The notes beneath the pieces are model-generated. The model was given only the letters and a program-made list of their open reading frames with translations, was not told where the DNA came from and did not search any database. Shown piece after piece: positions 1 through 29,846 of a DNA stretch of 31,913 bases (positions are counted from its first letter, which is position 1; every line of letters starts with the position of its first letter). The stretch is from a virus. The position numbers and the translations under genes are program-made. The stretch is taken from positions 149,411 through 181,323 of the IMG/VR virus record IMGVR_UViG_3300045988_119030. The stretch is one strand, 5' to 3'.

Positions 1-591
1 AGTATACAAACGTGGACAATCAATAGGACATGTCTCATCTACCAGAATCTCAATTCTACTTCTTTTATTTTCTGGAACAGAGTTTAAAAAATCCCAATCT
101 CTATTCTTACGACGAGGAATAACTACACTTTCATAGGTGTCAAGTGCTTTTACAAAATCATAATCTTCCTTTGTAGCTGTAATACTCTTTGTAAGTTTAT
201 AATTAGGAAACTTATCTCGAAGATACTTTTCGAGGATAGGAGAATTAACAATAATTTCATTCATTCCATTATCAAAAAGTTTAAGCATTTCATTACATTG
301 TCTATCATATACATCTGTTTCTTCAAGATTAGGATTTGTAAGGGTAAAACGCAAAATAATATTATTCTTTTCATAAAATTCTCGTACAGCACAGAGATAA
401 TCAATATTATGTTCTGGCATTCCGCCCATAAAACCTCCACCATTCCAAATCATGCCAGGAAGTGCGCCATAAACATATTTTACTTTTGCTTCTGGATAAA
501 AAGCTTGAGGTTCAAGCTCTTGAAGTTCAAGTAATCTATCATAAACATCAATACCATAATAAAATTCAGGGCAATTAAAATTAATATCCAT
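1..591 (-). CDS. Partial CDS (N-terminal 197 codons visible; C-terminus lies beyond window start). Hypothetical protein, last visible gene of the rSAM/YcaO operon
   Basis: Uninterrupted minus-strand frame from ATG 591..589 to position 1 (translated by hand: MDINFNCPEFYYGIDVYDRLLELQELEPQAFYPEAKVKYVYGALPGMIWNGGGFMGGMPEH...). RBS GGAGAA 5 nt upstream. Absent from the ORF track only because no stop lies inside the window. Confidence 0.55.
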   Translation of the reverse strand, partial: MDINFNCPEFYYGIDVYDRLLELQELEPQAFYPEAKVKYVYGALPGMIWNGGGFMGGMPEHNIDYLCAVREFYEKNNIILRFTLTNPNLEETDVYDRQCNEMLKLFDNGMNEIIVNSPILEKYLRDKFPNYKLTKSITATKEDYDFVKALDTYESVVIPRRKNRDWDFLNSVPENKRSRIEILVDETCPIDCPRLYT

Positions 592-604
592 TTATATTCT
601 CCTA

Positions 605-2392
605 TCAGTAATTTGCAATCATTGTTTTAAAATCTTTAGAATTAAAAATTTCTCTCATTGGTTCAAGAATACATTTTTCAACCAAATATTTTCTATTTAA
701 GATATTATTAAAATCTTCATTAGTATATTCATAATTATATTCTTTTAAAATATTAATTATTTCATCTTTAGAGTATTTTCTACTTTTTACATAAGAATAT
801 AAATTAAGATACTTTTTAAATTTTTCATAATAAGGACTTACAGTAATATCTACTGCGAATTGATTATCTTCAAGAAGATAGTCTGCGGAATCTTCAAATA
901 AATTTTTTACGAAAATTTCATTAGGAATTGTTTGAATATCTTTATTATTATAAGAAACCAATAAATCTCCTTGAGATAAAAGACCTAAAAATCTATCTGT
1001 TAATATATCGTCCTCAATTAAATCTACAAAATTTAAACAGTCTTTGATTATATTATAAACTCCATCGCCGTTATTTAAATAATTTTGAATATGTTTACAT
1101 TTATTTTTAGTAAGAATTGCACTTTCTTTAAGGGTTTTTAAAGTTTTACATTTATCTAAAAAAGAATACCAAAAGCCGTCAAGATTATTTAAATAAATAT
1201 CAATAGCTACAACCTTATCACTTAAAGATACATCAGCATAATAAATTTCAGCTTCAATAGATTCCGCGATTTTTTTATTCCATTCAAAAATTTCTTCATT
1301 CGAATAATTTTTATCTTCATAAGATAAAAATACATTTTTATTAATAGTATTTACATATTTCTTATGAAAAAAAATATTCTCAGGAAATGTATTTAAATTA
1401 GTAATACAAGATCCACCCATGATAATAATATCGTTATTATCTAATGTTTCATAAGGAAGAATAACAGAAAACTTTCTATCATCATAAGAAAAGCAATTTT
1501 GATACATTTCAGTTAAAATACGTTCAACCGCAATTTCAAATACAGGAAAAGCACCAAAATTAACTGAGATAGTTCCATTTTTATAATTAATAAGAATTCC
1601 CATTACTACTGGAACATTAAACGTTCTTGACATATCAATAATATAATATTTATTGCCATGGGATTCAATAGCATTAATAATCTTAATTAACTTTTCATCA
1701 GTAATACTATTAATATCAACAAAATAATAATCCTTATTAGGATTAGTATAAAAATGACTAACAACATAATGTTCAAAAATTTCTGAAAGTCCTTGATTTA
1801 ATGCCTCAATTATAGTATTACCAGCAGCCATACCTGAACTTCCCTGATAACGCTGAATGAGACGAGGATCTAAATACTTTACATCTTTTTCATTATTTAA
1901 ATTAATATAAGGAATACCAAAAAATTTATTATTATACATAGAAGTAAGACAATCTTTAATTATATAATTAGTTTCTTCGTCAAAAGAATTAAAAAACTTA
2001 TACATTAAAGAATCTTTTCCACCAAGGGCTTCTTTAAAGTTTACTTCTTTTTCATTTCTAAATAATGAATAATTATAATTTTTTTGGTTTACTTTGATTT
2101 TTTCATTACACAAAAAAGGATTACATAAATAATGTAATCCATTGCAAAATCTTTCATACATTTCAGCATATCCAGAAGCCATAGCGAACTCTTTAGATAC
2201 TCCTTTTCCAAAAGATCTTAAAATAGAATGACCTTTATAGTATAAACGAAGAGCAAGACTCCATGTTGTAGATTGTTCTTGACGTAAAACTTCTTCTATA
2301 CAATAAAAGCCTCGATCCGCAAAGAATTGCTTAATATTATTTACTGTATCTAAAGGATTAGTTTCTTTATAATGCTGTGAATAATTATTCAT
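605..2392 (-). CDS. ycaO: YcaO-domain protein (ATP-dependent amide-backbone activating enzyme family), 595 aa, stand-alone E. coli YcaO-like size
   Basis: Hallmark YcaO motifs seen in translation: SFGKGVSKEFAMASGYAEMYERF (GKG-x-S/T...A.ASxxAExxER) and YQGSSGMAAGNTIIEALNQGLSEIFEHY (SxGxAAG...EAxxxGLxExxE). TGA stop. No in-frame TAG. Confidence 0.75.
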   Translation of the reverse strand: MNNYSQHYKETNPLDTVNNIKQFFADRGFYCIEEVLRQEQSTTWSLALRLYYKGHSILRSFGKGVSKEFAMASGYAEMYERFCNGLHYLCNPFLCNEKIKVNQKNYNYSLFRNEKEVNFKEALGGKDSLMYKFFNSFDEETNYIIKDCLTSMYNNKFFGIPYINLNNEKDVKYLDPRLIQRYQGSSGMAAGNTIIEALNQGLSEIFEHYVVSHFYTNPNKDYYFVDINSITDEKLIKIINAIESHGNKYYIIDMSRTFNVPVVMGILINYKNGTISVNFGAFPVFEIAVERILTEMYQNCFSYDDRKFSVILPYETLDNNDIIIMGGSCITNLNTFPENIFFHKKYVNTINKNVFLSYEDKNYSNEEIFEWNKKIAESIEAEIYYADVSLSDKVVAIDIYLNNLDGFWYSFLDKCKTLKTLKESAILTKNKCKHIQNYLNNGDGVYNIIKDCLNFVDLIEDDILTDRFLGLLSQGDLLVSYNNKDIQTIPNEIFVKNLFEDSADYLLEDNQFAVDITVSPYYEKFKKYLNLYSYVKSRKYSKDEIINILKEYNYEYTNEDFNNILNRKYLVEKCILEPMREIFNSKDFKTMIANY

Positions 2393-2440
2393 ATGATATT
2401 ATGCCTTTCTTTTTTCTATCATATAAATATATTACTATAT

Positions 2441-2492
2441 TTTTTTAATAAAGTCAAAAACCTACCATTTTATTTGGTAGTTTTTGACTTTA
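2441..2492 (-). promoter_or_regulatory. 16-bp near-perfect inverted repeat (AAAGTCAAAAACCTACC / GGTAGTTTTTGACTTT) directly after the stop of gene 2493..2996. It embeds a TTGACT -35-like hexamer 17 nt from TAATAT. Candidate terminator/promoter junction for ycaO
   Basis: Stem-loop read directly. Lacks a clean U-tract on either strand, so its terminator role is uncertain. Confidence 0.3.
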
Positions 2493-2996
2493 TTAAATTG
2501 AATAAAAGCAATTAGGACATAAATACTAATTATCATCTATTTTAAATAATGGAATATTACTTACTTGTAAATTACATTTAAAGCATTGTTTATTTTTATA
2601 AATTTTTGGTATAAAAATTTCTATATTTGGCTCAAATAAATTTAAAAGATTATTAGATATTTTTTGAAAGTAAATATCTTTTTCTTTATTAGTATCATTA
2701 TAATTATATTGTAAAATATATTTACATATTACTTTACAATGATTTAAATTAGTTAATTTTAATTCTTCTACTGGAATAATAATATCAGATATATTATCTA
2801 AATTTATTTTAGATTTAATTGTATATTGTATTTGAAGAATTATAGTTTTATCTTTTTTAATAATTCCTAAATTAAAGCAAACAAAAAGTATCCAATAGTC
2901 ATAAATACTATTACTGTCAAAATCAAAAGATAAAGCTCTTATTTTATCCCAAAAGATTTGTTCTGGAATTTTAAATCCGCCATTACTAAATTTCAT
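2493..2996 (-). CDS. Hypothetical protein (~167 aa) with C-terminal 4-Cys zinc ribbon (CFKC...CPNC). Contains an in-frame TAG at 2526-2528
   Basis: Track ORF 2526..2996 ends in TAG. The frame continues QYLCPNCFYSI to a TAA at 2493-2495. RBS GGAGAG before ATG 2996. Confidence 0.5.
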
Positions 2997-3154
2997 TTAA
3001 CTCTCCATTAAAACAATACTCATAATAATTATTTGTATCTTTTTCAATTTGAATACTCCGAGGATAATCTAACTCCCAAGATGTTCTTTTATTATAAAAC
3101 TATAAAAAATTTTTTACTATATCTTGTATAAATTCTTTATATTCATCGTAAGTA

Positions 3155-5212
3155 TCAATCATATAAATCATACTCTTCTTTCTCAAGATAATTTAAAAAT
3201 TGATCATGGGCAAATTGATAATATATATATCCATTAAAATAATTTAATATTGGATATATTTCTTTTTTTAAATTATCAAATGATTTAATATATTCTCCAT
3301 CTAAACAATGAAAATTAATAGTATTGTTTTTTATATCACCTATAATTTTTTTACTTAAAGGGCATAAACAATCATTATTTATTTGTTTTAAAGGATAAAT
3401 TAAATTTATTTTATATAAAATATAATAACTTGTTTTAATAAAATTTTCTATAAAATAATTATTATGTTTTGTATAAATTAAATTATCATATTCATAAAAA
3501 TATTTTATTTCATATAAAATTCTAATAATTATTGATTGTAATATTTTATTTTTTTTATCTAAATTTAAATTATAGATATAAAGAAACTGTAAAAAGAAAA
3601 TAACTATTTTTACTAAATAATCTATAGCCTCAGACAATCCCGTATGAGATATGTTACCTGGATTAGTATTTAAATCAATTATATAATTTCCAATAGTCTA
3701 ATCAATTAGTTGTCCTTCTCCATATAAATTACATAAATCAAAAAATAAACTATCTTCGCATAAACAAAAATTACTATATTTTATATTATATTTCTATAAA
3801 AAACTTCGTTTTAAAAGTAATCCAAGTTTATTATCAGGAATAATAAACTATATAAAATCATTTTTTTCGTTATTTTTTATAAAATTATAAAGAATTTCTA
3901 ATTCATTATTTATATTAAATAAATCATCTGAATCCCAAAATAAAACATATTCATTAAAAGAATTTTCTAATCCTACGTTTCGTGCGACTCCAGGTCCTTT
4001 ACGAGTAAGATTTTTAAAAAAGAAACAAGGAAAATCCGCGTTATCAAATATTTTAATAACTTTTCTCTCACAAGCTGAATTATCACTTATTAAATATATA
4101 CAACAATCTTTAATAATTGTTTGCGCTCTTAATGAATTATATAAATCAATTATCTAATTATCATTAAGGTTATAATAAGGAATAATTATATCTATTTTGC
4201 CATCAATAAATCTATTTATACATTTTTGTAAATAGTAATTATTATATCGAAAGTCAATTGGAGTTTTACCATTTAAAAATTCCTAATAATTATTTAAAAA
4301 ATCTTCTTTATTATTTATAAGTTTTAAATAAAAGTCGTAGTCTTCAAAATAAGCATTTTCCATTGATACAGTAAATTCTGATTTAATGTTATAACATTTA
4401 TGCCATAGCCAAGAAGCGGTTGGTAAAGTAGCATCACAATATTTACAAATTTTCTTAGGTGAAAATATAAAATTATGTAAATCATCTAAGCTATTTATAT
4501 CTTCTAACTACAAATAATCTTCTTCCTCTTCTGGAATATTCAAATTATATTTTTTACAATAAATATCTAAGAATGCGGAAAAAGGACAGATATATATCTT
4601 ATAATTTTTTAATGTAAAACAAGGTATTTCATGTGGACAATATTGATAATAAGCCTTTGCTGGATCAGTATCTCCATTTTCATTTACAAGCTACTAACGC
4701 ATAAATAATCGCTCTTGATGATTAAAAGCAATACCATATTCTTGGCATTCTTCAACATCTTCATAATTTGTATAATTACTATAAGCAGTTATGTCGAACA
4801 TTATATCCATATCAAGGTATTCTTTTTTATGTTTAATAATATTTTTCATATTTAATCCATTAGATAAAACTTTTAATTGAGTTTTTTCTTTTGGAAATAT
4901 TTCACGAGCTATTTTACATAATTCAAATAGTTGTGGGTGAAGAGTTGGCTCTCCACCCACAATCATAAATACTTTTATATTAGGAATTTTTTTATTAGCC
5001 ATAATAACCTAATTGCGGAAATCATTTATATCAATAAACCAAGGCGTGGCTAAAGGTGAAAAATGATTACATCCCGCGCAATTAAGATTACAATGATCTA
5101 CTACTTGTATTTCTAAGCTTACACCATCATAAACAGATTTCCAAAGACTATGTGTATATGGAGGAATCCCACGATAATCTTTATCTTTCTTTATCTGTAT
5201 ATCGTTCATCAA
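3155..5212 (-). CDS. Radical SAM enzyme (N-terminal) fused to or translationally coupled with a GT-A/family-2 glycosyltransferase domain plus a C-terminal domain of unknown function. 12 in-frame TAG codons, including a TAG-TAG pair at 4691-4696
   Basis: One frame from ATG 5212 to TGA 3155-3157 with zero TAA/TGA. It links track ORFs 5009..5212, 4694..5002 and 3155..3637. Motifs: CNLNCAGC (CX3CX2C) and GGEPTLHP (rSAM). IDIIIPYYN...SLRAQT, ARNVGLENSFNEYVLFWDSDD (GT2 Rossmann start, ARN...DxDD). Cys-rich stretch after the rSAM core. Confidence 0.6.
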
Positions 5213-5762
5213 ATTCTCCTAATATATGTGTATTATAATCAACTAATTCTCTTATTTGATTATTGCGTTCATGTAAAAAACATTGAGTACAAATTTCATT
5301 TAAATTGTTTAAAGGTTCATGGAAAAAATTGCAATAATGTTTTTCAAAATCAACATATTTACAATACTTATCGCATATTAAAATATTACTATCTTTATTA
5401 TAAATCACAGGATGATCTTCTCGTAAGCGGAAAGATAGCTGAATTTTAAACATTAAAGTTCCTTGATAAGAATATAAAAAAGTTTTATAAAATATATCTT
5501 GGACTTTACTTTCAAAAGTAAATTTCTATTTATCTGTAGTAATAAGCTCAATGCATTCTATTTCATTCTAATCTATAGCTTTAACTTGCTAATAAACCTA
5601 ATTTAGAAAAGAATAATCAATATCATTCTAATTTTTAATTATTTTTGCAAAAACTATTTCTTTTGGAAAATTTAATTGAAATATAATATCATCACATTGA
5701 CGCTCATTAAATTTAACAGATTTTAAAATTTCTTTATCTGAATTAATAAAATTAATAACCAT
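5181..5762 (-). CDS. Hypothetical small Cys-rich protein (CDKYCKY...HYCNFF...CTQCF). Possible N-terminal extension to ATG 5762 containing 6 in-frame TAGs. The core 5181..5453 is a clean ORF
   Basis: Frame from ATG 5762 runs into track ORF 5181..5453 with only TAG interruptions. The high TAG density makes the extension uncertain. Overlaps the rSAM start by 32 nt. Confidence 0.3.
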
Positions 5763-6090
5763 TTCGTTTATCAGGAATTCCTTTTAATCGATCTCCTAAG
5801 AAATATCTATATAATTCATAAGAATCAGCAATATTATCGCATAAACAATTATTATTATTTTCATTGTTATTATTATCGTTATTATTATTATTATTATTAG
5901 ATTTTTCTGCATGATCTGTAATAATTATTTTAATGAAATTATTGATAATAGTATTAATTTCTTCATTTTCACCATTATTTTCAATCCAATTTAAATAAAT
6001 AACATATAAAAGATCTCTATAATCTTCTACATTGCTATAATCAAAAGTTTCAATTAAATGATTAATTTGATTTTTCATTTCTTCAATCAT
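5752..6090 (-). CDS. Small Asn-rich protein (112 aa) with a poly-N tract and a C-terminal CLC motif. Candidate precursor peptide or accessory protein of the rSAM-SPASM enzyme
   Basis: ORF overlaps the stop of the upstream rSAM-SPASM gene (ATGATTGA coupling). Low-complexity KSNNNNNNNDNNNNENNNNCLCDN. Confidence 0.5.
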   Translation of the reverse strand: MIEEMKNQINHLIETFDYSNVEDYRDLLYVIYLNWIENNGENEEINTIINNFIKIIITDHAEKSNNNNNNNDNNNNENNNNCLCDNIADSYELYRYFLGDRLKGIPDKRNGY

Positions 6091-7489
6091 TGTAATACCC
6101 CAAATTATGGCAAAGATTTAACCAATTTTCTTTATATTTTTCATCTGGAAAATAATTTTTTTCTAAAGCAATTTTAGTTAATCCTAATTCACAATAACTT
6201 TTAACTAAAAAAGATATTCTTGTTTTATGTAATTCACAAACACTTTTAGGCGGTAAAAATAAATCTCCAGTAGCTTCGAGTGCCGCACCAAGGCAAAGTT
6301 TTAAACAAAACGGATCATAAGGACAAGTAACACATCCAACATTTAAATGAGTATTGTTTGTCTTAATTACTGTATAAAGACTTGGATTAATTGCTGTAAT
6401 TCCAATAATTTTATCATTTTCAACTTCAAATTTACCGCCAATAAATTGCTGATAAGAAGTTCTGTGGCAAGGAACTAATTCCATAGTAGCAACATATAAA
6501 CAAGTTTGATGAGAAATTGCACAAGTGTAATTTCCATCTTTCCAAGTGACAGTTGGTTGTAATGGATCATAATTGTGTAATCCAATTAAAGATCCTTCTT
6601 CCCCATCTCCTAAAAAGATATGTCGAGCTAACTTATCTAATGAACTATCATTCATTTGGAATCTAATTTCAAGCATGTGAGTTAAGAATTCAAGATAGTG
6701 ATTTAATTTTTCTTCAGTCCATTCATCATTACGAACTTCTAAGAACATGGGCTGAAATTCATCGCGAGGCCCTTTACATAATTTATATTTCTCAAATTGT
6801 TCAAGCCACCAATCATAATTTTTAATAGCGCTTTCAATATTATTTGGAGAAATCATTGGATGAATACCGCAACAGTTCTTAGAAAGAAATTGCATAATCT
6901 TATCATAATATTCAAAATCTTTATTTTCTTCTCTTACACTATCATAAGGACCATCTACAGAACAAGATAAATTTAATTCCATTTCAAGGTCAAGAAATTT
7001 TTGAAGATATTCTTCCACTTTAGCTGCTTTTTTATCATCAGCAACAAAACTAAAGTTATTGGGGAAAGCAATACGAGGATGATGATTCTTAAAAAGATTA
7101 GGATGTTCTTCAAAGAGAGCTCCATAATATTTTAAAAGTAAATCAAAAATACTAAAGCCTAAATTATCATAAAATAAATCTCCAGCAAAGAGTTCTATTT
7201 CAAGGAATAAGACTTTTCTTTCGTTAAAAATATAATCTAATATAATGTTCATATTTTTAAGAATTTTTTCATTATTTGCTCTTGTTTCAAGTGGGTATAA
7301 ATCTTTTCCGTAACGAGCAATATAACAATATTCACACTTTTGATTACATTCTGGACGAATAATAAACTCAAAAGAGCTTTCATTTATCCAATATCCTTCT
7401 TCTTTATCCCCTTGATTAAAGCAATGGTTATCAAGAAATTTTTCAAAATATTTATTATTATCTAAAATACAACCTTCACTAATATTCAT
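6083..7489 (-). CDS. Radical SAM / SPASM-domain enzyme (peptide/protein-modifying maturase class), 468 aa
   Basis: CNQKCEYC (CX3CX2C) near the N-terminus. C-terminal CAISHQTC...C and GCVTCPYDPFCLKLC (CX2CX5CX3C SPASM signature). Start overlaps the TAA of the upstream gene by 1 nt. Confidence 0.8.
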   Translation of the reverse strand: MNISEGCILDNNKYFEKFLDNHCFNQGDKEEGYWINESSFEFIIRPECNQKCEYCYIARYGKDLYPLETRANNEKILKNMNIILDYIFNERKVLFLEIELFAGDLFYDNLGFSIFDLLLKYYGALFEEHPNLFKNHHPRIAFPNNFSFVADDKKAAKVEEYLQKFLDLEMELNLSCSVDGPYDSVREENKDFEYYDKIMQFLSKNCCGIHPMISPNNIESAIKNYDWWLEQFEKYKLCKGPRDEFQPMFLEVRNDEWTEEKLNHYLEFLTHMLEIRFQMNDSSLDKLARHIFLGDGEEGSLIGLHNYDPLQPTVTWKDGNYTCAISHQTCLYVATMELVPCHRTSYQQFIGGKFEVENDKIIGITAINPSLYTVIKTNNTHLNVGCVTCPYDPFCLKLCLGAALEATGDLFLPPKSVCELHKTRISFLVKSYCELGLTKIALEKNYFPDEKYKENWLNLCHNLGYYND

Positions 7490-8991
7490 TAATTGTATAC
7501 TCCTTGTTCTGTATATCTATCGTCATCCCAACATTCTTTAGGTAATACCCAATTATTTTCTCTATCAACATAATTATATAAAGCAGAAGAAATTCTTAAA
7601 GTTCCAATGCTTCTTAATAATTCACTACCAGTAGAAACCAAATTATTATAAGTACAAGCAAGATTTTTTGTTGTAATAAAAGCTAAGTGAAGCAATTTAT
7701 TATAATCATATTTATACACTGAATTTAATTGTCCGCACTCATTTAGCATTTGATATTCATTTAAAATAGTTTGAAACATGAATGGAAAAGAAGTGGTTTT
7801 AAATAAATTATATTTATAAAACACCTTATCAATTTCTTCATCTGATGCTGTTAAAAGATTAACACAAGAATGTCCTCTTGTCATTAAGTCTTTACGGGAA
7901 AGAGTGTCAATAGTGCCATCATCTTTAATGTTGTTTGGGTTTATATCAAACATATAATTTTGACAAGATACCATAGTACCGTCCCATAAAAGCTTTAATT
8001 CACTCCAATTAGAGCCACAAAAATTATTCATAGATAATGATCTAATAACTTCTTCATTTTTATCTTTAATGCATTGTAAAGCTTCTTCAATTGTTAAAGG
8101 GCATCCTTTTTGAGTCACATATTCTCCCAAATCGCATAAACTATCTTCATAAACACTTCTATATCCAACGATTAAACTAACTGGCATTCGTGGATCATGA
8201 AAATCAGACACATCAATATTAATTAATCTTTGTAAAAAAGATTCATACTCAATACGCTCATCCACTGATCCGTCTCTTGGATGTTCTGGACAAATAGAAA
8301 CTGAAGGATTAAGCGTAATAGCTTGATTAATAACTTTTTCATTTAATTCATATCCAAAAGTATCTAATTCTTTATAATAATCATGAACTTTTTCAAGAGT
8401 ATCTAATTGATTAATGAGCATTCCAGACAATACACCATGTAATTGTATTGAAATATTTGTATGATTAAATTTAATTTTATTTAATCCCTCTATAACTGTT
8501 GAAATAGTTTGAAAAATACGTTCATTATTTGCATTTCTAATATTATTAGTAGAATAAGCTCCATCATATGAAAATTGAATTGATAAATTCACATCATCTT
8601 GAGTTGTTAATTCATCTACTCTTTTAGCAAAAGCAATTATACGTTCTGGAAAATCCATTCCATTAGTTGAAAAATCAATATTTCTAATATTAGGAAAAAA
8701 TTTAAACCAATCATCTAAATGCTCTGTAATAAGATGAAGTGTTAGTGTTGGTTCTTGACCCCAAAATCCAAAATTATCAATTATATATCTATCAAGGTCT
8801 AATCTTTTAAAAATTTTTTTTACATTTTCAAGATAAGAACCATCAGTTAAAGCTTTAATTGTATCTTGTTGTAATTTAGCAGAACAACCATTTAAACTAT
8901 TTTCTATCATGCAATACTAACAATGTAAATTACACCCACATGAAGATACGAGTGTTACTGCTCTAACATCTATATCTGTATTTTTTTTCAT
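7489..8991 (-). CDS. Radical SAM enzyme (~500 aa) whose CX3CX2C motif is split by an in-frame TAG at 8917-8919 (SSCGCNLHC-TAG-YCM). True start is ATG 8991 with RBS AAAAAGGAG
   Basis: Track ORF starts at 8910. Upstream same-frame reading gives MKKNTDIDVRAVTLVSSCGCNLHC*YCMIENS. GFWGQEPTL aligns with the GGEP motif. Confidence 0.7.
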
Positions 8992-9017
8992 AAATTCTCC
9001 TTTTTCTCTTAAAAAAT

Positions 9018-9770
9018 TTAAGATCTTGATCTTCCTGCTCCACTTCTATTCGCGCTGTTAGAAGTATAAGCCCCTCTATAGGAGCAAGGTCTATAACTGC
9101 CTCTATGAGTATCATTATTAGAGCCTCTATGGCTTGTATAATAAGTATAATTACTTGAATAATTAGAACTATTATAAGCATTATTAGAACTTCTATTAGA
9201 ACCGTTATAAGCATTATTAGAACCTCGATGAGTTCCATCATAAGCATAGTACCCATTTCTATGTGTACCATTATAACTAGCGTCATAAGCATTATTAGAA
9301 GCTCTATAACTACCATTATAGCCACCATCATAAGCATAATTAGAGGCTCTATAACTACCATCATAACTAGCGTCATAAGCATTATTAGAAGCTCTATAAC
9401 TACCATTATAACTACCATCATAAGCATTATTAGAAGCTCTATAACTACCATTATAACTACCATCATAAGCGCAAACCGCGTTTACTTCTTCAAGTTTTGT
9501 CCTAATTTGTGATAATGGAATATATCTAGTTAACTCATTTACTCTTGGGGCTGTAAAGGTGTCAAAAGTTGCTTTTGTACCAACGTAAGATACATTTCTT
9601 AAATTTTCAATTTCGTTCTTTATTGTGATAACATCTCGCGCCCCAACTCTTTGTTTAGTCTTATCAGGAATAGCAGTTCTACTTTGAGAAAATCTTGTTT
9701 GCGCTGTATTTAAGTTATCATATAAAGCACGAACATCAGCCCATGAAATTCGACTTCCTGTTCCTGCCAT
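9018..9770 (-). CDS. Tyr/Asn/Ser/Gly-rich tandem-repeat protein (250 aa): a ~95-aa N-terminal domain followed by ~15-aa repeats AYDGSYNGSYRASNN. Second gene of the operon, just upstream of the three rSAM genes
   Basis: Clean ORF, RBS AAAAAGGAG, TAA stop. Overlapping track ORFs 8963..9466 and 9228..9512 are repeat artefacts. Confidence 0.7.
   Translation of the reverse strand: MAGTGSRISWADVRALYDNLNTAQTRFSQSRTAIPDKTKQRVGARDVITIKNEIENLRNVSYVGTKATFDTFTAPRVNELTRYIPLSQIRTKLEEVNAVCAYDGSYNGSYRASNNAYDGSYNGSYRASNNAYDASYDGSYRASNYAYDGGYNGSYRASNNAYDASYNGTHRNGYYAYDGTHRGSNNAYNGSNRSSNNAYNSSNYSSNYTYYTSHRGSNNDTHRGSYRPCSYRGAYTSNSANRSGAGRSRS
9111..9470. repeat. Tandem direct repeats (45-bp unit, four perfect or near-perfect copies at 9291-9470, degenerate 30/45-bp copies upstream) encoding the repeat tail of the protein above
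   Basis: Exact 45-bp duplication ATTATTAGAAGCTCTATAACTACCATTATAACTACCATCATAAGC at 9381-9425 and 9426-9470. Confidence 0.8.
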
Positions 9771-9784
9771 AATTTTGCTCCTTT

Positions 9785-10195
9785 TTAATTATTAATTGAA
9801 TATTTAATTACAAAATCAACAGAAGAATTATATTCTTGTGCAAAAACTTGGTCCCCAATATCATTACTATACTCAAAAGAAAGTTCTTCAATATCATTTA
9901 ATTTCTTATCAAAAATAACACGATAATCTTCTGAAGTTGTTAAATAAGCAACTGTTATTTTATCCATAGTCTCTCTATTTAACTTTTTAATAATATTAGC
10001 TCCCTATTTAGCCAAATTTACTTTTTCCATATCATATTCTTGGCTAAATTCACGCATACGAAGAAAACAGAATTTGTTTTCAGTATTGGAACTAGAAGTA
10101 ATAGTAAAAGTAATTGGACCTGTAAGGATAGTATCCTCTACGTTTCCATCTTTATTAGTAATAGTAATTTTAAAAGTATTATCTAAATTTACCAT
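9785..10195 (-). CDS. Hypothetical beta-rich protein (136 aa) with one in-frame TAG (10004-10006) that joins track ORFs 10004..10213 and 9785..9967. First gene of the long operon
   Basis: Start ATG 10195 preceded by GAGGAGG at 9-nt spacing. The ORF ending in TAG continues in frame into the next ORF. Confidence 0.55.
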
Positions 10196-10224
10196 TTTAA
10201 TTTTCCTCCTCAAAAATTTTATAA

Positions 10225-10256
10225 AATATAGGATATATTATTTATTATCCTATATT
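10225..10256. promoter_or_regulatory. 11-bp inverted repeat AATATAGGATA-N10-TATCCTATATT in the promoter region of the operon. Candidate operator
   Basis: Palindrome read directly. Lies between terminator 10345-10374 and the first gene start at 10195. Confidence 0.4.
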
Positions 10257-10693: not shown

Positions 10694-12127
10694 TTAACTA
10701 AAATTATGTATAAAGTCTTTTAAAGACCTAAAATTATTAACTTTTTCTTCACCAGCATCTCTAAAGCACCAAGGACATAAATACATATCAGTTCCTTTAT
10801 GATAGTGAATATCTTCTGTATAATATAAATTATTACAACATTCGCATCGTTTACAATAAGTATCCGCACAACTATCGCAAACTAATTCATTTTCATCGCC
10901 TACGGAATTTGCTTCGTCAAGGATTATACGAGAACCGCAACAAGCGCAATAACCATAGTTATCGTCTTCGTTTACTCCATAACTGAATTCACAATCTCCG
11001 CATCGCATATATTCTCCACTTTCAATTATAGTTTTACCGCATTGTAAACAAGGAACATCACCACCAATAGACCAATGAGGAAGATCAGTCTTGTCAAATG
11101 GATAATAATACAATTTTAAACTATAAATAGGCAAATAGCAAGAAGAATAAAGCAAATCATTATATTGAAGAGTATGCTCACCAATATCTTCAACGATATC
11201 ACTAATAGGATATAAACGAGACAAAATAGGAATCCATGTTTCAGATAATCCGATAGTCTCTTCTCCAAAAGGAATGCTACTCATCCTATTAGAGACAGTA
11301 GTAATACCTCCGTCTACCCATTCACGCAACTGAAAAGTCTTATCAAAAGTATTGATAATATCTTTAATTTTAATTAAAGCATTGGTTGTCATAAAAGGAT
11401 ATTGACGGCCAGCCATCAAACCGCGTCGCTTATCTTCCATATAAAGAAGCATACGCCATTTCTTAGAATTCCAAAGAACATCTTCGGGAAAGTGCGGAAG
11501 TTTCTGATTCTCTGCTCCGCGCAAATAGCAAATAAAAGTGCTTCTATCTACCATGTAAGATAAATTTCCTGCTCTATATTCACCATCAAGCGCATGGCAA
11601 GAGCGCCAATTATAAGTATTTTCACTTACGCTTAAAAAATCCAAAGGATGAACTGAGAAACATAATGTTCCCTCAATCTTGTCCTCTTGGATAATACGAC
11701 TTGCGTAATTTTGAATATCTTCCAAAGAGCGCGGATTCTCTTCAAAATACTTAAAAGCCTTAACTAATTTCATCCCTCTTGGAATCTTTTTATCCTTATA
11801 GAAATAAGTATCTATAACCGTATTGTTAAAGAATCCTTCTTTGTTTACTGAAATAAAATCCTTTAAGTCTTCATTGTTATAAGTATAATTAATTGTTTCA
11901 AGAAACTCTTCAAGACGATGTTCTTTAGTTTTATCATCTAAGGAAAAAGATACCTTTTCCGGCCATTCATAAATTAAATGACCATGAAAAAATTTAATTA
12001 AGTCTTTTTTGGCTTCGAGGAATCTTTCGAATAGTTCTTCTGTTTTTGGATTACTGATTCCTTGGGAGTAACTGATGACTTTGTTGAACTGTTCTCTAAT
12101 GCTTTCGATGTCGAAGTCATATGACAT
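10694..12127 (-). CDS. Large hypothetical protein (paralog A). Conserved core LCFSVHPLDF...W.SC...GEYRAG...WNSKKWR and a C-terminal tail with at least 5 CxxC zinc-ribbon pairs. Start is probably ATG 12127 (RBS GGAGGA), not the track start at 12148
   Basis: Paralogy with 14635..16239 seen directly in the translations. Confidence 0.7.
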   Translation of the reverse strand: MSYDFDIESIREQFNKVISYSQGISNPKTEELFERFLEAKKDLIKFFHGHLIYEWPEKVSFSLDDKTKEHRLEEFLETINYTYNNEDLKDFISVNKEGFFNNTVIDTYFYKDKKIPRGMKLVKAFKYFEENPRSLEDIQNYASRIIQEDKIEGTLCFSVHPLDFLSVSENTYNWRSCHALDGEYRAGNLSYMVDRSTFICYLRGAENQKLPHFPEDVLWNSKKWRMLLYMEDKRRGLMAGRQYPFMTTNALIKIKDIINTFDKTFQLREWVDGGITTVSNRMSSIPFGEETIGLSETWIPILSRLYPISDIVEDIGEHTLQYNDLLYSSCYLPIYSLKLYYYPFDKTDLPHWSIGGDVPCLQCGKTIIESGEYMRCGDCEFSYGVNEDDNYGYCACCGSRIILDEANSVGDENELVCDSCADTYCKRCECCNNLYYTEDIHYHKGTDMYLCPWCFRDAGEEKVNNFRSLKDFIHNFS

Positions 12128-13104
12128 TTGACTAATCCTCCAATACAATCTTTACAATACTCGCTGTGTGGGTTCGCAGGGTCAATTTCAAATGCCTCTT
12201 CACACTCCGCACACCATTCAACATTACTGGGAATACAATCAGGGCAATAAAAACATGTATGTCCATCTAATCCCTTTACTGGAAATGTTTCATACTCACT
12301 AAATAGCTGACCGCATCCTCTACAATGAACGTAGAATCCATCGCCATCAGTTGGAAAATTCTTACAAATATTATCGAACCAAATATTATGATAATTACGA
12401 TAATACTCAAAATTAGGGATATCTTTCTCTTGGAGCATGCGGATTACCTTATTAATCGTATCAAAAAGAGCACCCGCATTTAATGTTTCAATACGGTTAT
12501 GTTCATTTTTATAACCTACTGAAAGATTTACACCACAAATTTTCCATTCAGGGCATAAAACACTAATATCACTAAACGTGCCAAAATCTTCTACAAATCC
12601 AAAAGATTCAATGTAATCGATGAATTTAGGATTGTAAAGGTCATAAAACACACAATCATTTGTGCCCTGTCTATCCAACTGAATAATATATTTCAAGTTG
12701 GGAAATGGACACTCAAAATATTGTAATACTAATGCTTCGGCGCCCAATCCACCGATTTCTTCATCAGTGGTAAAAATAATAGAAGGGCGCAAAGACGTAT
12801 TTCTCAAAATATGAAGAATCGCATATACTCCTGCTCTATCATCTGCGCCAAGACCATCGGGCGACCAAAGCACATTTTTTCTTGTGTCATAATATAAATC
12901 TTTGACCGGTTTCTCAAACACGGTATCAAGATGAGCTACTAAAGCAATCGGAATATCACCAACCGCACAAACATACTCTTTAGTAATAACTACTTCAGTA
13001 TATTTAGATTTCAATACATCGGCAACATATTCTCTTAACTCATCTTGCGTCGAGCGAACCAGATATTCAAATAACCAAAGTTCATTAGTTTTAAAACCTC
13101 TCAC
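11998..13104 (-). CDS. MH-clan zinc metallopeptidase-like protein (M28/M42-like) with a C-terminal Cys-rich zinc-ribbon tail
   Basis: HLDTV, GADDRAG and DEEIGGLGAEAL motifs (metal ligands of aminopeptidase-type MH-clan enzymes). CRGCG...CFYCPDC...CAECEE...CKDC tail. The last ~40 codons are low-complexity and overlap the next gene by ~130 nt. Confidence 0.65.
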   Translation of the reverse strand: MRGFKTNELWLFEYLVRSTQDELREYVADVLKSKYTEVVITKEYVCAVGDIPIALVAHLDTVFEKPVKDLYYDTRKNVLWSPDGLGADDRAGVYAILHILRNTSLRPSIIFTTDEEIGGLGAEALVLQYFECPFPNLKYIIQLDRQGTNDCVFYDLYNPKFIDYIESFGFVEDFGTFSDISVLCPEWKICGVNLSVGYKNEHNRIETLNAGALFDTINKVIRMLQEKDIPNFEYYRNYHNIWFDNICKNFPTDGDGFYVHCRGCGQLFSEYETFPVKGLDGHTCFYCPDCIPSNVEWCAECEEAFEIDPANPHSEYCKDCIGGLVKCHMTSTSKALENSSTKSSVTPKESVIQKQKNYSKDSSKPKKT

Positions 13105-14617: not shown

Positions 14618-14646
14618 ATTATATATTATTTTTTTTAAAAAATCAA
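14618..14646 (-). promoter_or_regulatory. Conserved promoter motif TTGATT-N17-TATAAT
   Basis: aatcaa at 14641-14646 and attata at 14618-14623, 17-nt spacer. Same extended motif as the other promoters listed here. Confidence 0.45.
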
Positions 14647-14661
14647 AGAAGGTCTTTGATT
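14629..14661 (-). terminator. Hairpin ATCAAAGACCTTCTTTGAT plus T-run overlapping the stop codon of gene 14635..16239
   Basis: Inverted repeat read directly. Confidence 0.45.
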
Positions 14662-16239
14662 TGGGTTAGTGCCATTAACCCAAGAAATAAACTCCTTTTC
14701 ATTAATATCAAAGAGGTCTCTACCCTTTTTAGTGAGAGTTTCTCCATCGACATAATAATTGGAGCGCCAACCGTCTCTGTCTTCTTCAATTTCACCACTG
14801 AAAAAAGTTTTTACTTTTTTATCTCCACAACAATCCCAACAAATATCCACATAGAATCCAACTGGCTTCTTCTGGAATCGAAGGCGGATTTGCTTCATGT
14901 CATCATAATCTTTGCGGACTCTGCAACAAGGACAAATTTCTGTGCTTTCATCATAACAATAAGCACAGTAAGTTTTTCCATCAACATTATAAGTGTCATC
15001 GACATAAACAATATCGCCACACTTATCGCACTTTACCGCATCCGAACAACTCGTACAAATGGTCATTTCCGCGTTATTCTCTCTATCATCGAGGAGAGAA
15101 TCATCAAGAAGCTCTCCACAACACATACACTCAGATTCACCCGAGTAGTTAAGATCAATGTTTTCGTCCGTAGGAATCTTAGTGGAAACGTAAGCATTAT
15201 GCTCTGAATAGATATCGTTATACATGAAATTGGTATCAAGATTGAAATAAATATTTCTATCAAGCTCACCAATAATATTATTACTGTAATTCTGAATCTT
15301 ATTTAAATACTTGGTATAAGGACCAAAACCAAGATTCTGTTCAGCGAGCTTTTTGATCCAAGCAAGACAAATGCTTTCAAGATTTTCATTACAATAAGGA
15401 TAACCCTTGATGCCAAGAATAAGACTTTTATCTACAATGAAAAGCTCACGCCAGCGCTTGCTATTCCACATAACAGGCTTACCAACCTTATACCAAATTT
15501 CCATATCCTTATCAGATTTAAGGTAAGCTTCGAGGATAATGGGAGAATTCATCATCTCAACGGTTCCCTGACGATACTCGCCACCACCATTCTGCCATCT
15601 CATACAAGAGTCCCAACCGCAATTATTATCACTCATAGTGATATAGTCAAGAGGATGAATAGAAAGACAAAGTTCACCAGAAATATTTTTCTGATTAAGG
15701 AACTGAGAATGAGCAATACGGAACTTTTCATAGATATCGCGGTCAATCTCCAAGATATCACTCATCTTACCAAGCATCTTGCTAAGCTTCATACCCTTAT
15801 TAATCATAAGAGTTTTATTGTTATAAGTGAATTTAAAAGATTCACCATCATAAATATTAGACATTAAAGGATCAACATCCAAAAGACTTGCCAGATTAAA
15901 ATACTGAGTATTAGAGATGGTTGTTTTAAGATAAAGATCTCTTACCTTATTATTAAAGGTATTTCGGAATTCATATCCATCACTATTTCGACCGAAATAA
16001 TCATAAAAATCCTCACTCATCTCTTCATAAGAGCGAGAATAACTTACCTTACGAGAAATGATAAGATTATTTCCCAACATCTTGTAAAGATTCTGCTTAT
16101 TATAAGCCCAAAAACGGAGAATGTAATCGAGAGATGTCTTCATATCGGAACTATCTCCACCGAGACCCGCAAAATTGCGGATATACCCTTCAATCTTTTC
16201 GCAATCTTCTTTGGAAAGGAGTTCAAATAAATTAGCCAT
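14635..16239 (-). CDS. Large hypothetical protein (paralog B, 534 aa). Core LCLSIHPLDY...W.SC...GEYRQG...WNSKRWR and a C-terminal tail of multiple CxxC zinc ribbons
   Basis: Clean ORF. Paralogous to 10694..12127. Confidence 0.8.
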   Translation of the reverse strand: MANLFELLSKEDCEKIEGYIRNFAGLGGDSSDMKTSLDYILRFWAYNKQNLYKMLGNNLIISRKVSYSRSYEEMSEDFYDYFGRNSDGYEFRNTFNNKVRDLYLKTTISNTQYFNLASLLDVDPLMSNIYDGESFKFTYNNKTLMINKGMKLSKMLGKMSDILEIDRDIYEKFRIAHSQFLNQKNISGELCLSIHPLDYITMSDNNCGWDSCMRWQNGGGEYRQGTVEMMNSPIILEAYLKSDKDMEIWYKVGKPVMWNSKRWRELFIVDKSLILGIKGYPYCNENLESICLAWIKKLAEQNLGFGPYTKYLNKIQNYSNNIIGELDRNIYFNLDTNFMYNDIYSEHNAYVSTKIPTDENIDLNYSGESECMCCGELLDDSLLDDRENNAEMTICTSCSDAVKCDKCGDIVYVDDTYNVDGKTYCAYCYDESTEICPCCRVRKDYDDMKQIRLRFQKKPVGFYVDICWDCCGDKKVKTFFSGEIEEDRDGWRSNYYVDGETLTKKGRDLFDINEKEFISWVNGTNPNQRPSLIF

Positions 16240-24955: not shown

Positions 24956-25885
24956 TTAACAAATTCTAAAAATTGTTGTATCCAATTTCAAATCATTAAT
25001 TGATAATTTATCTAAATGAAAATATGGGATTCTAATTAACGGGATGTTATTTTCTTTACACCATTGATTTTTAAAAGCATCATGTTCTTTTGTTTTTTCA
25101 AACTTTTCTAATGTATTCCAACCAGTTCCAGATTGATAATGCTATATTCCATCAAATTCAATTAAATAAGAATTATCAATATAAAAATCAAATTTAGCTT
25201 TATGGTTAGTATCCTAAAATTTACAATTTTCAAAAGTTTTTTCACAAATATACTAAATATTATGTTCTTTTAATAAAGAGATAATTTTTTCCTAACCTGC
25301 TGATTGTAAACAACCACAAGATTTACTTTGTCCTTTTCTTAAAGTAGTTCCTGATACAATTTTTTGATTGCCACAAGAGCATTGGCATAACCACATAGCA
25401 GTATTATGCTAATTAGATCCACTACGTTTTAACACTGTCCATCGACCAAAAGTTTGTCCTGTTAAATCAATTGTTGTAAGTTCACCGATCTTTTTATGAA
25501 TATAACAACCACATGAAATAACGGCGCCACTTACTAAACCATCTTTACGAATACTTTTAATAGTTCCACAATCACACTAACATTTCCAATAAGTATGCCC
25601 TTTTCCTTCTGTTCTATCATATCCTAAAACTGTTAGCATACCGAATTTTTTACCTGTTAAATCTTCTAACTGTTTTAAACGTTTCTAACATCCACACGAA
25701 GTTGTATGATTTGAAGTTAAATGAGAAGCAGAGACTACTGTCTTATTACCACATTCACATTGACATAACCAATACGATCCTTTTCTTGAATATTCAACTC
25801 GATATAAAACTGTTAATTTTCCAAAATGCTAATTAGTCAAATCTTTTGCTTGTCCTACTGGAATCTATTTATAAATTTTTTCCAT
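24956..25885 (-). CDS. DNA endonuclease-like protein: three N-terminal zinc-finger repeats (FG.LTVL...W.CQC.CG...SCGC) plus a C-terminal DUF559/Vsr-like PD-(D/E)xK domain (DFYID...IEFDGIQH). Nine in-frame TAG codons
   Basis: Region has no track ORF. Frame from ATG 25885 (RBS AAAAGGAG) to TAA 24956-24958 contains only TAG interruptions. TAG occupies positions that are CAA (Gln) in the sister repeats. Confidence 0.6.
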
Positions 25886-28080: not shown

Positions 28081-28530
28081 TTAAAGAATAGGTTTAAGTT
28101 TATTGCAACAATTGAAATCTCTCATACAGCCATTTTCTTCGCTGAAACAAGAACAACCATTTTGGCAAGTATTACGAATAATGTCGGGATTACGGACATT
28201 CGTGATGGCTTGCATATTTCCAACGATTTCTCGCTTTTGGATCATTTTCGGCGTGTCGGGAGAATCATTAAACGCGCAGTTCACATTTTGTTCACAATTT
28301 GCGCATGTACTAAGTTTTGCCCAACATTTATCGCAATAAGTGTTGCCTTGATCGTCGATGATCATTTGCTTATGGAAAATTGGAGTATGACATGCTTTAC
28401 AAGTGTAATATTCACCGCAAAGAAAATTATCGCAGATCGCATGATTTGGGTCAATTGTATTGCCTGTGATTTGACATAATCCGGTCGTTGGCCGGTAATA
28501 ACCGCAGTTATTACAATAAAAAGTCATCAT
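28081..28530 (-). CDS. Cys-rich protein (149 aa) with multiple CxxC pairs
   Basis: YCNNCG...CDNFLCGEYYTCKAC...CDKC...CANC read from the translation. Confidence 0.65.
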   Translation of the reverse strand: MMTFYCNNCGYYRPTTGLCQITGNTIDPNHAICDNFLCGEYYTCKACHTPIFHKQMIIDDQGNTYCDKCWAKLSTCANCEQNVNCAFNDSPDTPKMIQKREIVGNMQAITNVRNPDIIRNTCQNGCSCFSEENGCMRDFNCCNKLKPIL

Positions 28531-28781
28531 AGCACTTTGGCAGAATATGGAGCATCTTCGCCATCAAATTTTAGAATCTTGTTAGCAAGATCGTGATTGA
28601 CGCGCAAAGGGCCATCATCAAGAGGAGTAAATGCAACAGTAATAAGATCGTCGAAATACTCTTCGGCCCAACGGCCAGCTTCTGCGAGAGTTTCCGCGAA
28701 GATAAAACCGCACGTAAGTCTATCCATTTTATCAGAGTCGTCCCAATAACGTGCTTCATAATAAACGGGGCATTGTTTCAT
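28527..28781 (-). CDS. Small hypothetical protein (84 aa)
   Basis: Clean ORF. Confidence 0.55.
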   Translation of the reverse strand: MKQCPVYYEARYWDDSDKMDRLTCGFIFAETLAEAGRWAEEYFDDLITVAFTPLDDGPLRVNHDLANKILKFDGEDAPYSAKVL

Positions 28782-28797
28782 ATTTATTTTCCTTTCT

Positions 28798-29136
28798 TTA
28801 AGAGATTGTAGAGATTAGAAAAATCTCGGGATCATCAAGGCTTTCGATGGGGATTTTGAGAAACTTTGCGTAAGCTTCCTTCATTGTGTTATTAAGGCGA
28901 TAATACTCCTGCGGAGCGATGAAGATATTGTCGATGCGGACGGCCTCGCCTGCGGAAGACTCACCGAGAAGATAGCCGAAGATAGGATTTTCGTCGTTAT
29001 CATAGTCGCTTGCGCGATGCCAATAACCTTCCTCGGTAAGCTGTTCGATAGCCTCAGCCATATTATCATAGTTTTCAAGAAGGTTCTTGGGGACTTTATA
29101 ACCACACACGAGCTTAGAACCAAAATCAACAGACAT
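28798..29136 (-). CDS. Hypothetical protein (112 aa). First gene transcribed leftward from the divergent control region
   Basis: Clean ORF. Confidence 0.6.
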   Translation of the reverse strand: MSVDFGSKLVCGYKVPKNLLENYDNMAEAIEQLTEEGYWHRASDYDNDENPIFGYLLGESSAGEAVRIDNIFIAPQEYYRLNNTMKEAYAKFLKIPIESLDDPEIFLISTIS

Positions 29137-29178
29137 TATTTATCACCTTTCAATAGTTTTTCTTTATTTTATATTTAT

Positions 29179-29207
29179 ATTATATATTAAAATTTAATAA
29201 AAATCAA
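29179..29207 (-). promoter_or_regulatory. Conserved promoter TTGATT-N17-TATAAT driving the leftward gene block
   Basis: aatcaa at 29202-29207 and attata at 29179-29184. Confidence 0.5.
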
Positions 29208-29261
29208 TAAAGCGGTTTTGTCGCCTCAGGGTAGCATAAAGACTGGATTTAATGATCGGCT

Positions 29262-29640: not shown

Positions 29641-29846
29641 TTAGATTTGAAGTATATATGAAGGAGGTGAAAGTATTGTCAATAGAATAGAAAAGATTTC
29701 CTGCTAATGTAGATATGAATATATTAACTTTTTTAAATAATAAGAAGATAAATGGTGAATTATATGCTTATTTGTAGAGTTTATCTGATTATAATGTGAT
29801 TAATAAATAGCATAATATTTATAAAACTTATGTATTAAAAAAATGG

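Follow-up and report, generated by a model that had tools for sequence, protein, structure and literature searches.

A repeat protein encoded ahead of radical-SAM genes

We analyzed a 31,913-nt stretch of DNA (the window) from an uncultivated ~190-kb gut phage (IMG/VR record IMGVR_UViG_3300045988_119030) and in it a minus-strand open reading frame (ORF), here called the target gene, whose 250-residue product is encoded ahead of several radical S-adenosylmethionine (radical-SAM, rSAM) genes (Table 1). An earlier reading of the letters alone (the original prediction) had described this product as an N-terminal domain followed by 15-residue repeats and had proposed it as a multi-core precursor of a peptide made on the ribosome and modified after translation (RiPP). 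The described architecture was borne out, with a domain of ~100 residues (the N-domain) and five strict units followed by decayed ones. Structure models predict the N-domain to be a folded ~100-residue helical bundle and the tail to be disordered (predicted local distance difference test score, pLDDT, ~25). A strong Shine-Dalgarno sequence (SD) precedes the ATG (AAAGGAGCAAAATTATG).

Tandem Repeats Finder reported a 45-bp array at 9266-9470 (4.6 copies, 90 % matches, score 347) and a second array with a 33-bp period at 9165-9247. Perfect 45-bp repeats had been claimed for 9291-9470, which is an overstatement: only two copies, 9381-9425 and 9426-9470, are identical, and the remaining copies match the reference at 82-91 %. 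In the protein, residues 101-175 hold the five in-register units (AYDGSYNGSYRASNN twice, then AYDASYDGSYRASNY, AYDGGYNGSYRASNN and AYDASYNGTHRNGYY); decayed variants continue to about residue 235 and are followed by a non-repeat C-terminus. The 150-residue tail consists of Ser (19.3 %), Tyr (18.0 %), Asn (16.7 %), Gly (12.0 %), Ala (11.3 %), Arg (9.3 %) and Asp (5.3 %), contains 27 Tyr and 4 His, and is devoid of Ile, Leu, Val, Met, Lys, Glu, Gln, Phe and Trp. We found 93 close homologues, on contigs of up to 199 kb, whose lengths differ in 15-residue steps (205, 220, 235 and 250 residues). In 73 of them the number of strict units per protein ranged from 0 to 6 with a mode of 4, as counted by a regular expression that itself fixed the one Arg position per unit. 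Despite this free copy number, tail composition and unit sequence are kept among the close homologues.

TAG is a sense codon in the window

Under the standard code the region downstream of the target gene appears fragmented, while reading TAG as sense yields intact genes of the lengths called in relatives. We therefore rejected the idea that the downstream fragments are pseudogenes. In-frame TAG codons number one in rSAM1, five in p193, ten in rSAM-GT2, one in p167 and one in the 136-residue gene upstream of the target. The codon at 8917-8919 falls within the cluster motif of rSAM1 (C-N-L-H-C-TAG-Y-C). When window TAGs were aligned with orthologues, the opposing codon was TAG 49 times and another residue 31 times, most frequently Gln (13/31), and the N-domains of relatives carry TAG at Gln-typical positions. 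TAG is thus a sense codon here, since it lies inside the CX3CX2C motif and aligns with TAG or mostly with Gln, and it probably encodes Gln. Recoding of TAG to Gln is documented for gut phages in two reports (PMC9523058; bioRxiv 10.1101/2021.08.26.457843).

The 26-nt gap between the target and the next gene, and the three rSAM genes that the original prediction had placed downstream, are correct only in this recoded frame, in which the TAG at 8917-8919 is read through and rSAM1 starts at 8991. A standard-code annotation hides the pathway, with a TAG inside the rSAM1 Fe-S motif and ten in the rSAM-GT2 gene.

TAG codons occur throughout 2493-10213 and again at 24956-25885, and most other genes between 10 and 29 kb are free of them. 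In two related loci (L031, 1-427; L032, 1-216), genes for release factors (PCRF/RF-1 domains) precede the cassette by a few kb, which is consistent with stop-codon recoding under phage control.

Table 1. Features of the cassette and its upstream boundary, in window coordinates.
Feature	Position	Strand	Description
p292, 5' part	1..591	-	292-aa Cys-containing family; runs off the window
YcaO-domain protein	605..2392	-	595 aa; Pfam YcaO 7e-26
p167	2493..2996	-	167 aa; C-terminal zinc-ribbon-like CxxC...CxxC; 1 TAG
~62-aa ORF	2983..3171	-	corresponds to the 59-aa gene of relatives
rSAM-GT2 fusion	3155..5209	-	684 aa; 10 TAG; CNLNCAGC radical-SAM domain and family-2 glycosyltransferase (GT2)
p193	5181..5762	-	193 aa; Cys-rich; 5 TAG; homologues in L018-L020
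p112	5752..6090	-	112 aa; poly-Asn run
rSAM2	6083..7489	-	468 aa; full SPASM motif CX2CX5CX3C (GCVTCPYDPFCLKLC)
rSAM1	7489..8991	-	500 aa; CNLHC-TAG-YC; twitch/SPASM half-motif CX12GX4C; own SD
Target gene	9018..9770	-	250 aa; ATG start, TAA stop, 0 in-frame TAG; ORF call
Low-complexity tail, aa 101-250	9021..9470	-	five strict 15-aa units (nt 9246-9470), decayed units, conserved ...NRSGAGRSRS C-terminus
N-domain, aa 1-100	9471..9770	-	small helical domain; conserved N-x-x-C-A-[YFH]-[DN] at its end (Cys100)
136-aa gene (g142)	9785..10195	-	first operon gene; one TAG
Terminator-like hairpin	10372-10343	-	intrinsic-terminator type; 13-bp stem and T-run; consensus match only; overlaps the promoter-like site
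Promoter	10357-10329	-	near-consensus site, TTGACA-17-TATTAT, TG extension; consensus match only

Motifs of the radical-SAM enzymes

The two enzymes encoded directly after the target share the cluster motif only and are otherwise unrelated. Both Fe-S motifs of rSAM2 are kept in 120/120 homologues among those listed, and the CNLxCxYC and CX12-14GX4C motifs of rSAM1 are kept in 11/11 distant orthologues. Their SPASM/twitch assignment holds at the motif level only, as the match to TIGR04085 gave 18.1 bits against a cut-off of 27. Among hidden Markov models (HMMs), rSAM1 matched N_Twi_rSAM (9e-7) and PapB (2e-6), both far under the cut-offs, and the weak best matches of rSAM1 and rSAM2 are to peptide or protein maturases (PapB, HxsB, QhpD, SCIFF, CbpB), again all far below cut-offs. 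For the fusion protein, the L019 orthologue gave Pfam matches to GT2 (1.7e-17) and Radical_SAM (8e-11). In rSAM1 the CX3CX2C motif occupies residues 20-27 and in rSAM2 residues 48-55, leaving no space for an N-terminal RiPP recognition element (RRE). The rSAM2 family comprises more than 300 clusters at 90 % identity.

The target and its enzymes remain together and diverge together

We assembled 31 loci with sequence downstream of a gene of the target's family, four of which were seeded from rSAM2. L001-L006 and L009-L013 are contigs of close relatives and of a sister clade, L014-L018 are distant viral contigs and L022-L028 are further loci; L007, L008 and L021 are short contigs of very divergent members, including one protein of inverted domain order, and reach rSAM1 only. 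L018 is a 113-kb IMG/VR contig, L019 a 428-kb contig from a Clostridiales Family XIII bacterium, and L020 a contig binned as Muribaculaceae that holds two cassettes. An rSAM1 homologue directly followed the family gene in all 31 loci, and rSAM2 came next wherever the sequence extended far enough; the order target-rSAM1-rSAM2 was seen in L001-L006, L009-L020 and L022-L028. This synteny holds across lineages whose proteins are only 25-45 % identical to those of the window and whose enzymes are 27-45 % identical. In the reverse test, each of the four loci found through rSAM2 (on 120-206-kb contigs) encoded an N-domain protein with an aromatic tail directly upstream of rSAM1; the four proteins span 238-671 residues, have tails of up to ~565 residues and matched the N-domain profile with hmmsearch E values of 4e-22 to 3e-32. 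L019 and L018 agreed in their tblastn matches and in the coordinates of these, and the L019 locus looks like a prophage.

The other genes of the cassette are more mobile. rSAM-GT2, p292 and YcaO change position, YcaO being missing in some cases; rSAM-GT2 lies upstream in L015-L019, and a GT8 glycosyltransferase takes the place of GT2 in L031 and L033.

Comparison of the window with L011 revealed an allelic cassette. Flanking genes are 95-99 % identical, whereas the block from the 136-residue gene to YcaO is only 41-69 % identical (136-residue gene 41, target 45, rSAM1 64, rSAM2 69, p112 58, p193 54, rSAM-GT2 59, p167 42 and YcaO 64 %). The substrate candidate and the enzymes diverge together, and the whole cassette is swapped between phages that are otherwise ~98 % identical. 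Two natural alleles in near-identical backbones constitute a ready system for specificity swaps. The functional tie between target and rSAM genes that had been proposed is thus supported by the synteny of the 31 loci, by the rSAM2-seeded loci and by co-divergence. The cassette also stands out as a low-GC island (GC 0.18-0.29 over 1-9000, versus 0.33-0.41 in the rest of the window), which coincides with the block exchanged as a divergent allele.

An unannotated family defined by the N-domain, with variable aromatic tails

The target protein had no match in Pfam, PHROGs, NCBIfam or PADLOC, and neither it nor rSAM2 had a tblastn match among 50,697 GenBank phages. Searching with an N-domain profile yielded 191 clusters at 50 % identity, a family that is unannotated; a profile word-index search with a broad N-domain alignment gave only seven matches, and a metagenome scan gave only five loci. 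As sampled, the family ranges only over uncultivated ~100-200-kb gut phages and prophages. The original prediction asked whether the N-domain resembles a RiPP leader. It is predicted to be a folded ~100-residue helical domain, and it showed no similarity to known leader families (NHLP, Nif11 and similar) in NCBIfam or Pfam.

Of 120 representatives whose tail reaches 30 residues or more, 114 carry the domain N-terminally and 6 C-terminally, with the repeats in front. Tails are always aromatic/Ser/Asn/Gly-rich repeats that vary in period, length (30-565 residues) and position. The period is 15 residues in the window clade and 4-20 elsewhere; the sister clade (~47 % identity) shares the N-domain and the C-terminus (...NRSGAGRxRS) but has 11-residue units of the SSNYSSNNAQR type. 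Other tail types include SFNSSFNSS, SYRTSYQTSY, DNGFRSSDF, SFGNSSFGNSS and NYTPTYSSNNN. Tail composition across 115 representatives was Ser 20, Phe 14, Asn 13 and Gly 11 %, with Ile, Leu, Val and Met together at ~3 %. The commonest aromatic-initiated tetrapeptides across the family are aromatic-NSS, -DSS, -GNS and -RSS and the commonest tripeptide is aromatic-N-S, so that a loose common motif can be written as aromatic-[N/D/R/G]-[S/G/A]-[S/T]. Non-repeat motifs are conserved as well (SNYSSNYTYYT and NRSGAGRSRS, and CSGGSFRFTGSFR in other subfamilies), which suggests that the tail works as a whole. One member (P0112; L026, 507-1628) carries a Hint/intein-like domain C-terminal to its repeat tail, suggesting self-cleavage at the tail end in that lineage.

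Accessory genes of the cassette

The operon runs in the order 136-residue gene, target, rSAM1, rSAM2, p112, p193, rSAM-GT2, ~62-residue ORF, p167, YcaO and p292. The predicted hairpin and promoter just past the preceding gene likely mark its 5' boundary. The target had been placed at the head of the operon; this is slightly off, as the 136-residue gene lies between the promoter/terminator and the target. An unrelated-looking protein of 118-145 residues precedes the target in most related loci; in related loci a small gene also occupies p112's place after rSAM2. In the window the poly-Asn tract of p112 (NNNNNNNDNNNNENNNN) is encoded by an (ATT)n run at 5848-5899. Between the promoter-like site and the first operon gene there is an AT-rich inverted repeat (10218-10255, minus strand, ATAAAATATAGGATA...TATCCTATATTTTAT) that may be an operator or an RNA hairpin.

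The YcaO protein scored 83 bits against the NCBIfam YcaO-type kinase domain (cut-off 75.65) and is nearest to the E. coli-type YcaO. It occurs in the window clade and in L014 and L022, and was not seen within the flanks of L015-L019. The p292 family, present as one to three paralogues per locus, shows a collinear but marginal similarity to Peptidase_U32 (3/10 members; best 21.2 bits, E 1.9e-4, cut-off 22.4), and its profile had no match among PDB sequences; we use the similarity only as a lead to function. U32 proteins include putative collagenases and also O2-independent, prephenate-dependent hydroxylases. In L019 (16174-16992, and likewise in L018) a gene for DAHP synthase (Pfam 1.7e-72) adjoins the cassette beside three U32-like paralogues, and it may link the locus to aromatic amino-acid or prephenate supply.

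The target protein as a proposed substrate of rSAM1 and rSAM2

In our judgment the balance tips slightly in favor of the 250-residue protein being the dedicated ribosomal substrate of rSAM1 and rSAM2. The N-domain would act as its docking handle, and the tail would be modified at its aromatic motifs. The target is the likeliest substrate of this pair because of its invariant adjacency, the result of the reverse test, the co-divergence of the cassette, the position independence of the domain and a selection that acts on what the tail is composed of rather than on its sequence. The kept Fe-S motifs, the maturase-like best matches of both enzymes, the pairing of a folded domain with a disordered tail and the sense reading of TAG also speak for this role. 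We infer the tail to be the substrate, and likewise the type of chemistry, its timing, the final product and the biological role set out here. The N-domain would serve as a position-independent handle, leader-like in most members and follower-like in a few relatives, and the disordered tail would offer many copies of a short aromatic-x-small-Ser/Thr motif, in this case Y-[D/N/R]-[G/A]-S. Modification would recur along these motifs, the most plausible chemistry being radical cross-linking or some other reaction on or beside the aromatic side chains. Further tailoring would probably come from the GT2 domain fused to the third rSAM (GT8 elsewhere), from the U32-like proteins and, in the window clade, from YcaO; a glycosyltransferase recurs, which suggests glycosylation. 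Since in-frame TAG occurs in rSAM1, rSAM-GT2 and others, the full pathway would be made only after the switch to TAG = Gln, late in infection. As to its role, we guess that the product, a protein or large peptide bearing many modifications, acts in phage-host or phage-phage conflict; the diversification of the cassette alleles prompts this guess.

Several observations weigh against a substrate role. Ten of the 27 Tyr in the window tail stand in Y-x-Gly, which lacks the C-beta of known three-residue cyclophanes. Neither rSAM1 nor rSAM2 reached a cut-off of the curated RiPP-maturase families in NCBIfam, and neither had a phmmer match among PDB sequences. No RRE/PqqD-like domain, protease or exporter was detected in the cassette proteins with Pfam, NCBIfam or PHROGs. 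Gene order in phages can persist without functional coupling, and all loci may come from one broad phage lineage. Free repeat number between near-identical phages also fits a generic low-complexity or contingency-type protein. The original prediction had named such free variation as grounds for dropping the idea. Unit number does vary freely, but composition and unit sequence are kept, and for that reason the variation does not refute the target as a substrate.

More tentatively, and with a good deal of doubt, the system may form a distinct viral modification class in which the handle presents a tail, up to ~565 residues long, to an invariant SPASM/twitch rSAM pair together with U32-like proteins and glycosyltransferases, giving a densely cross-linked or hydroxylated, glycosylated polypeptide material instead of a small peptide. 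Such a material would be synthesized late by TAG-recoded gut phages, the U32-like proteins would be possible O2-independent hydroxylases, and allelic diversification would arise from action where the phage meets its host or another phage.

That a precursor can be paired with rSAM-SPASM maturases is known already. The new elements are a handle domain that is folded, aromatic tails of great length, an enzyme pair that stays fixed and has U32-like and glycosyltransferase partners, and a phage context that is conserved and recoded. No account of the module turned up in searches of the literature on phage radical-SAM enzymes, YcaO/RiPP systems and phage recoding, and the paper on Zeta crAss-like phages is silent about it. 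If the tail is a substrate, the N-domain proteins amount to a large precursor family that lacks annotation and counts at least 191 clusters at 50 % identity. Radical-SAM peptide chemistry would then gain a folded recognition module usable at either end of a substrate and would extend to very long multi-motif substrates, and viruses would own a modification pathway that is conserved and apparently part of their core, in contrast to an accessory bacteriocin.

Comparison with known systems

A candidate precursor encoded with candidate modifying enzymes, the arrangement general to RiPP systems, is what synteny and co-divergence show here. Among particular systems, triceptides are made by rSAM-SPASM enzymes (enzymes that form three-residue cyclophanes, 3-CyFEs) whose targets are aromatic-X2-X3 motifs, for example YDR, HAA and HTK (PMC11499958). 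Like the phage proteins, triceptide precursors carry several short aromatic-initiated motifs beside a radical-SAM/SPASM enzyme, with all aromatic residues usable, and the commonest motifs of the N-domain family (aromatic-N-S, -D-S, -R-S and Y-R-A) have an X3 that bears a C-beta. In the window tail YRA (four times), YDA (twice) and a few others have such an X3, while its five YDG and five YNG cannot be canonical. Unlike triceptide systems, the phage system is phage-borne and TAG-recoded, always pairs two rSAM enzymes, and has a folded handle of 100 residues instead of a short leader and tails of 30-565 residues. rSAM1, rSAM2 and rSAM-GT2 had no match at E<=0.01 to the curated NCBIfam models of 3-CyFEs and cyclophane synthases.

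The His-Xaa-Ser system (HxsA with HxsB/HxsC; TIGR03978) similarly joins a substrate of tandem three- or four-residue (hetero)aromatic-x-Ser units to two different radical-SAM/SPASM enzymes; runs of H-R-S occur in some relatives (P0208) and rSAM2 weakly matches HxsB (E 1.9e-4). That match reaches 20.3 bits against a cut-off of 370 and does not make rSAM2 an equivalog; moreover, the window tail has far more Tyr than His, no HxsD counterpart is present and the N-domain is unrelated. Mycofactocin (MftA with a C-terminal Val-Tyr, MftC and the GT2 protein MftF) offers a precedent for Tyr-directed rSAM-SPASM chemistry followed by a family-2 glycosyltransferase, and rSAM-GT2 weakly matches the MftF (E 1.5e-3) and MftC (E 9.7e-3) models. 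These scores, 15.1 versus 265 bits for MftC and 17.5 versus 280 bits for MftF, lie far under the cut-offs; the target ends in ...GRSRS, its presumptive substrate portion is a long repeat tail in place of a single C-terminal core, and an RRE (MftB) and MftD/E are missing. Membership in the triceptide, Hxs and mycofactocin families was rejected, as the triceptide models were unmatched and the other scores fall far under the cut-offs. YcaO azoline or thioamide chemistry is likewise not indicated: the SagD-type model gave 33 bits against a cut-off of 219, no E1-like/ocin-ThiF or TfuA partner was detected, and several related cassettes have no YcaO.

In eukaryotes, fungal ustiloxin/dikaritin precursors (YAIG-type cores) and plant BURP-domain precursors also combine a folded or signal domain with tandem Tyr-containing cores of varying copy number. 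They differ in being secretory, in using UstY/DUF3328 oxidases or copper-dependent BURP cyclases, and in having Kex2-type sites between cores. No UstY/BURP-type enzymology, Kex2-type sites or secretory features were found in the phage system.

Alternative explanations

The arrangement first proposed for the target, a strict multi-core RiPP precursor whose leader is removed and whose 15-residue units or Y-x-x-S motifs are each excised as small modified peptides, we now consider unlikely. Tandem near-identical units do follow a conserved N-domain near SPASM/twitch rSAMs, YcaO and a glycosyltransferase. The one Arg fixed per unit, its position preset by the regular expression used, is a possible cleavage site, and peptidase activity might be sought in the recurrent p292, with its marginal Peptidase_U32 similarity, or in the M28/M20-like peptidase gene conserved 2 kb upstream. 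But no distinct linker, recognition or cleavage sequences separate the units, the period is not kept across the family, and non-repeat motifs are conserved within and at the end of the tail. The co-diverging cassette is also without a protease, as the M28-like gene lies outside it, behind the terminator, and an exporter was not found. The multi-core layout is therefore unsupported.

Somewhat less probable still is that the target is a self-associating low-complexity protein (a prion-like or FG-like sticker-spacer protein or a functional amyloid) that forms a condensate, gel or fiber, with the rSAM enzymes acting elsewhere, for example in DNA/nucleotide hypermodification or on a small molecule. 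Phage DNA hypermodification pathways do include radical-SAM enzymes and glycosyltransferases, as described in one report (PMC8989533). The tail is rich in aromatics, Ser, Asn and Gly, nearly free of aliphatic and charged residues and predicted to be disordered; its copy number is unconstrained, and some relatives have FG-nucleoporin-like arrays (SFGNSSFGNSS). Against this, a self-associating protein would leave unexplained both the co-divergence and the constant place of the gene upstream of rSAM1-rSAM2 while other genes move, and peptides or proteins are the typical targets of SPASM/twitch rSAMs, as the best HMM matches suggest here. Aromatic low-complexity domains (FUS-type [G/S]Y[G/S] and FG-nucleoporin) resemble the tails in their spaced aromatics in a Ser/Asn/Gly matrix, their disorder and their drifting repeats of kept composition. 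The likeness is a compositional analogy only, since those domains are not coupled to radical-SAM genes and aromatic density is two- to three-fold higher here; at 18-30 %, it lies far over that of typical prion-like or FG domains.

A virion fiber, adhesin or decoration protein with hypervariable repeats, which the original prediction had listed as an alternative and which variation in repeat number and sequence among close phages might recall, is very improbable: neither target nor neighbors gave a structural match in PHROGs or Pfam, the target had no GenBank phage match, the surrounding region is non-structural (peptidase-like, metallophosphoesterase, DUF5052), and the predicted small helical bundle is no beta-rich or coiled-coil fiber domain. 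In the loci examined, no family member was found as a tail-fiber or structural protein or apart from the enzymes, so that the chief refuting observation named in the original prediction did not occur, and the tail-fiber reading was rejected for want of any structural signal.

Other features of the window

Megablast of 12 kb of the window gave no match, Rfam found no RNA family and a tRNA scan found no tRNA in the window. A tblastn search of the GenBank phages with p484 matched only hypothetical proteins, in Enterococcus phages. Upstream of the cassette, two paralogous proteins of ~480-530 residues (phrog_18912; 10694-12148 and 14635-16239, minus strand) carry C-terminal Cys-rich zinc-ribbon clusters; distant relatives likewise keep them, together with the M28/M20-like peptidase (11998..13104), upstream of their cassettes. 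The minus-strand ORF at 24956-25885 (309 residues, 9 TAG) contains three tandem zinc-ribbon-like repeats of the form G(K/R)LTVL...W.C.C.CG...SCGC and a nuclease-like C-terminal end and lies in a local GC dip; it may be a mobile gene of the homing-endonuclease type. The sign of the GC skew flips near 28-29 kb, where coding passes from the minus to the plus strand. A gap of ~700 nt within 28500-29900 holds 2.7 copies of a 43-bp tandem repeat (29488-29599), and this strand-switch gap may be a divergent-promoter or origin region. A further repeat array lies at the end of the window (31819-31913).

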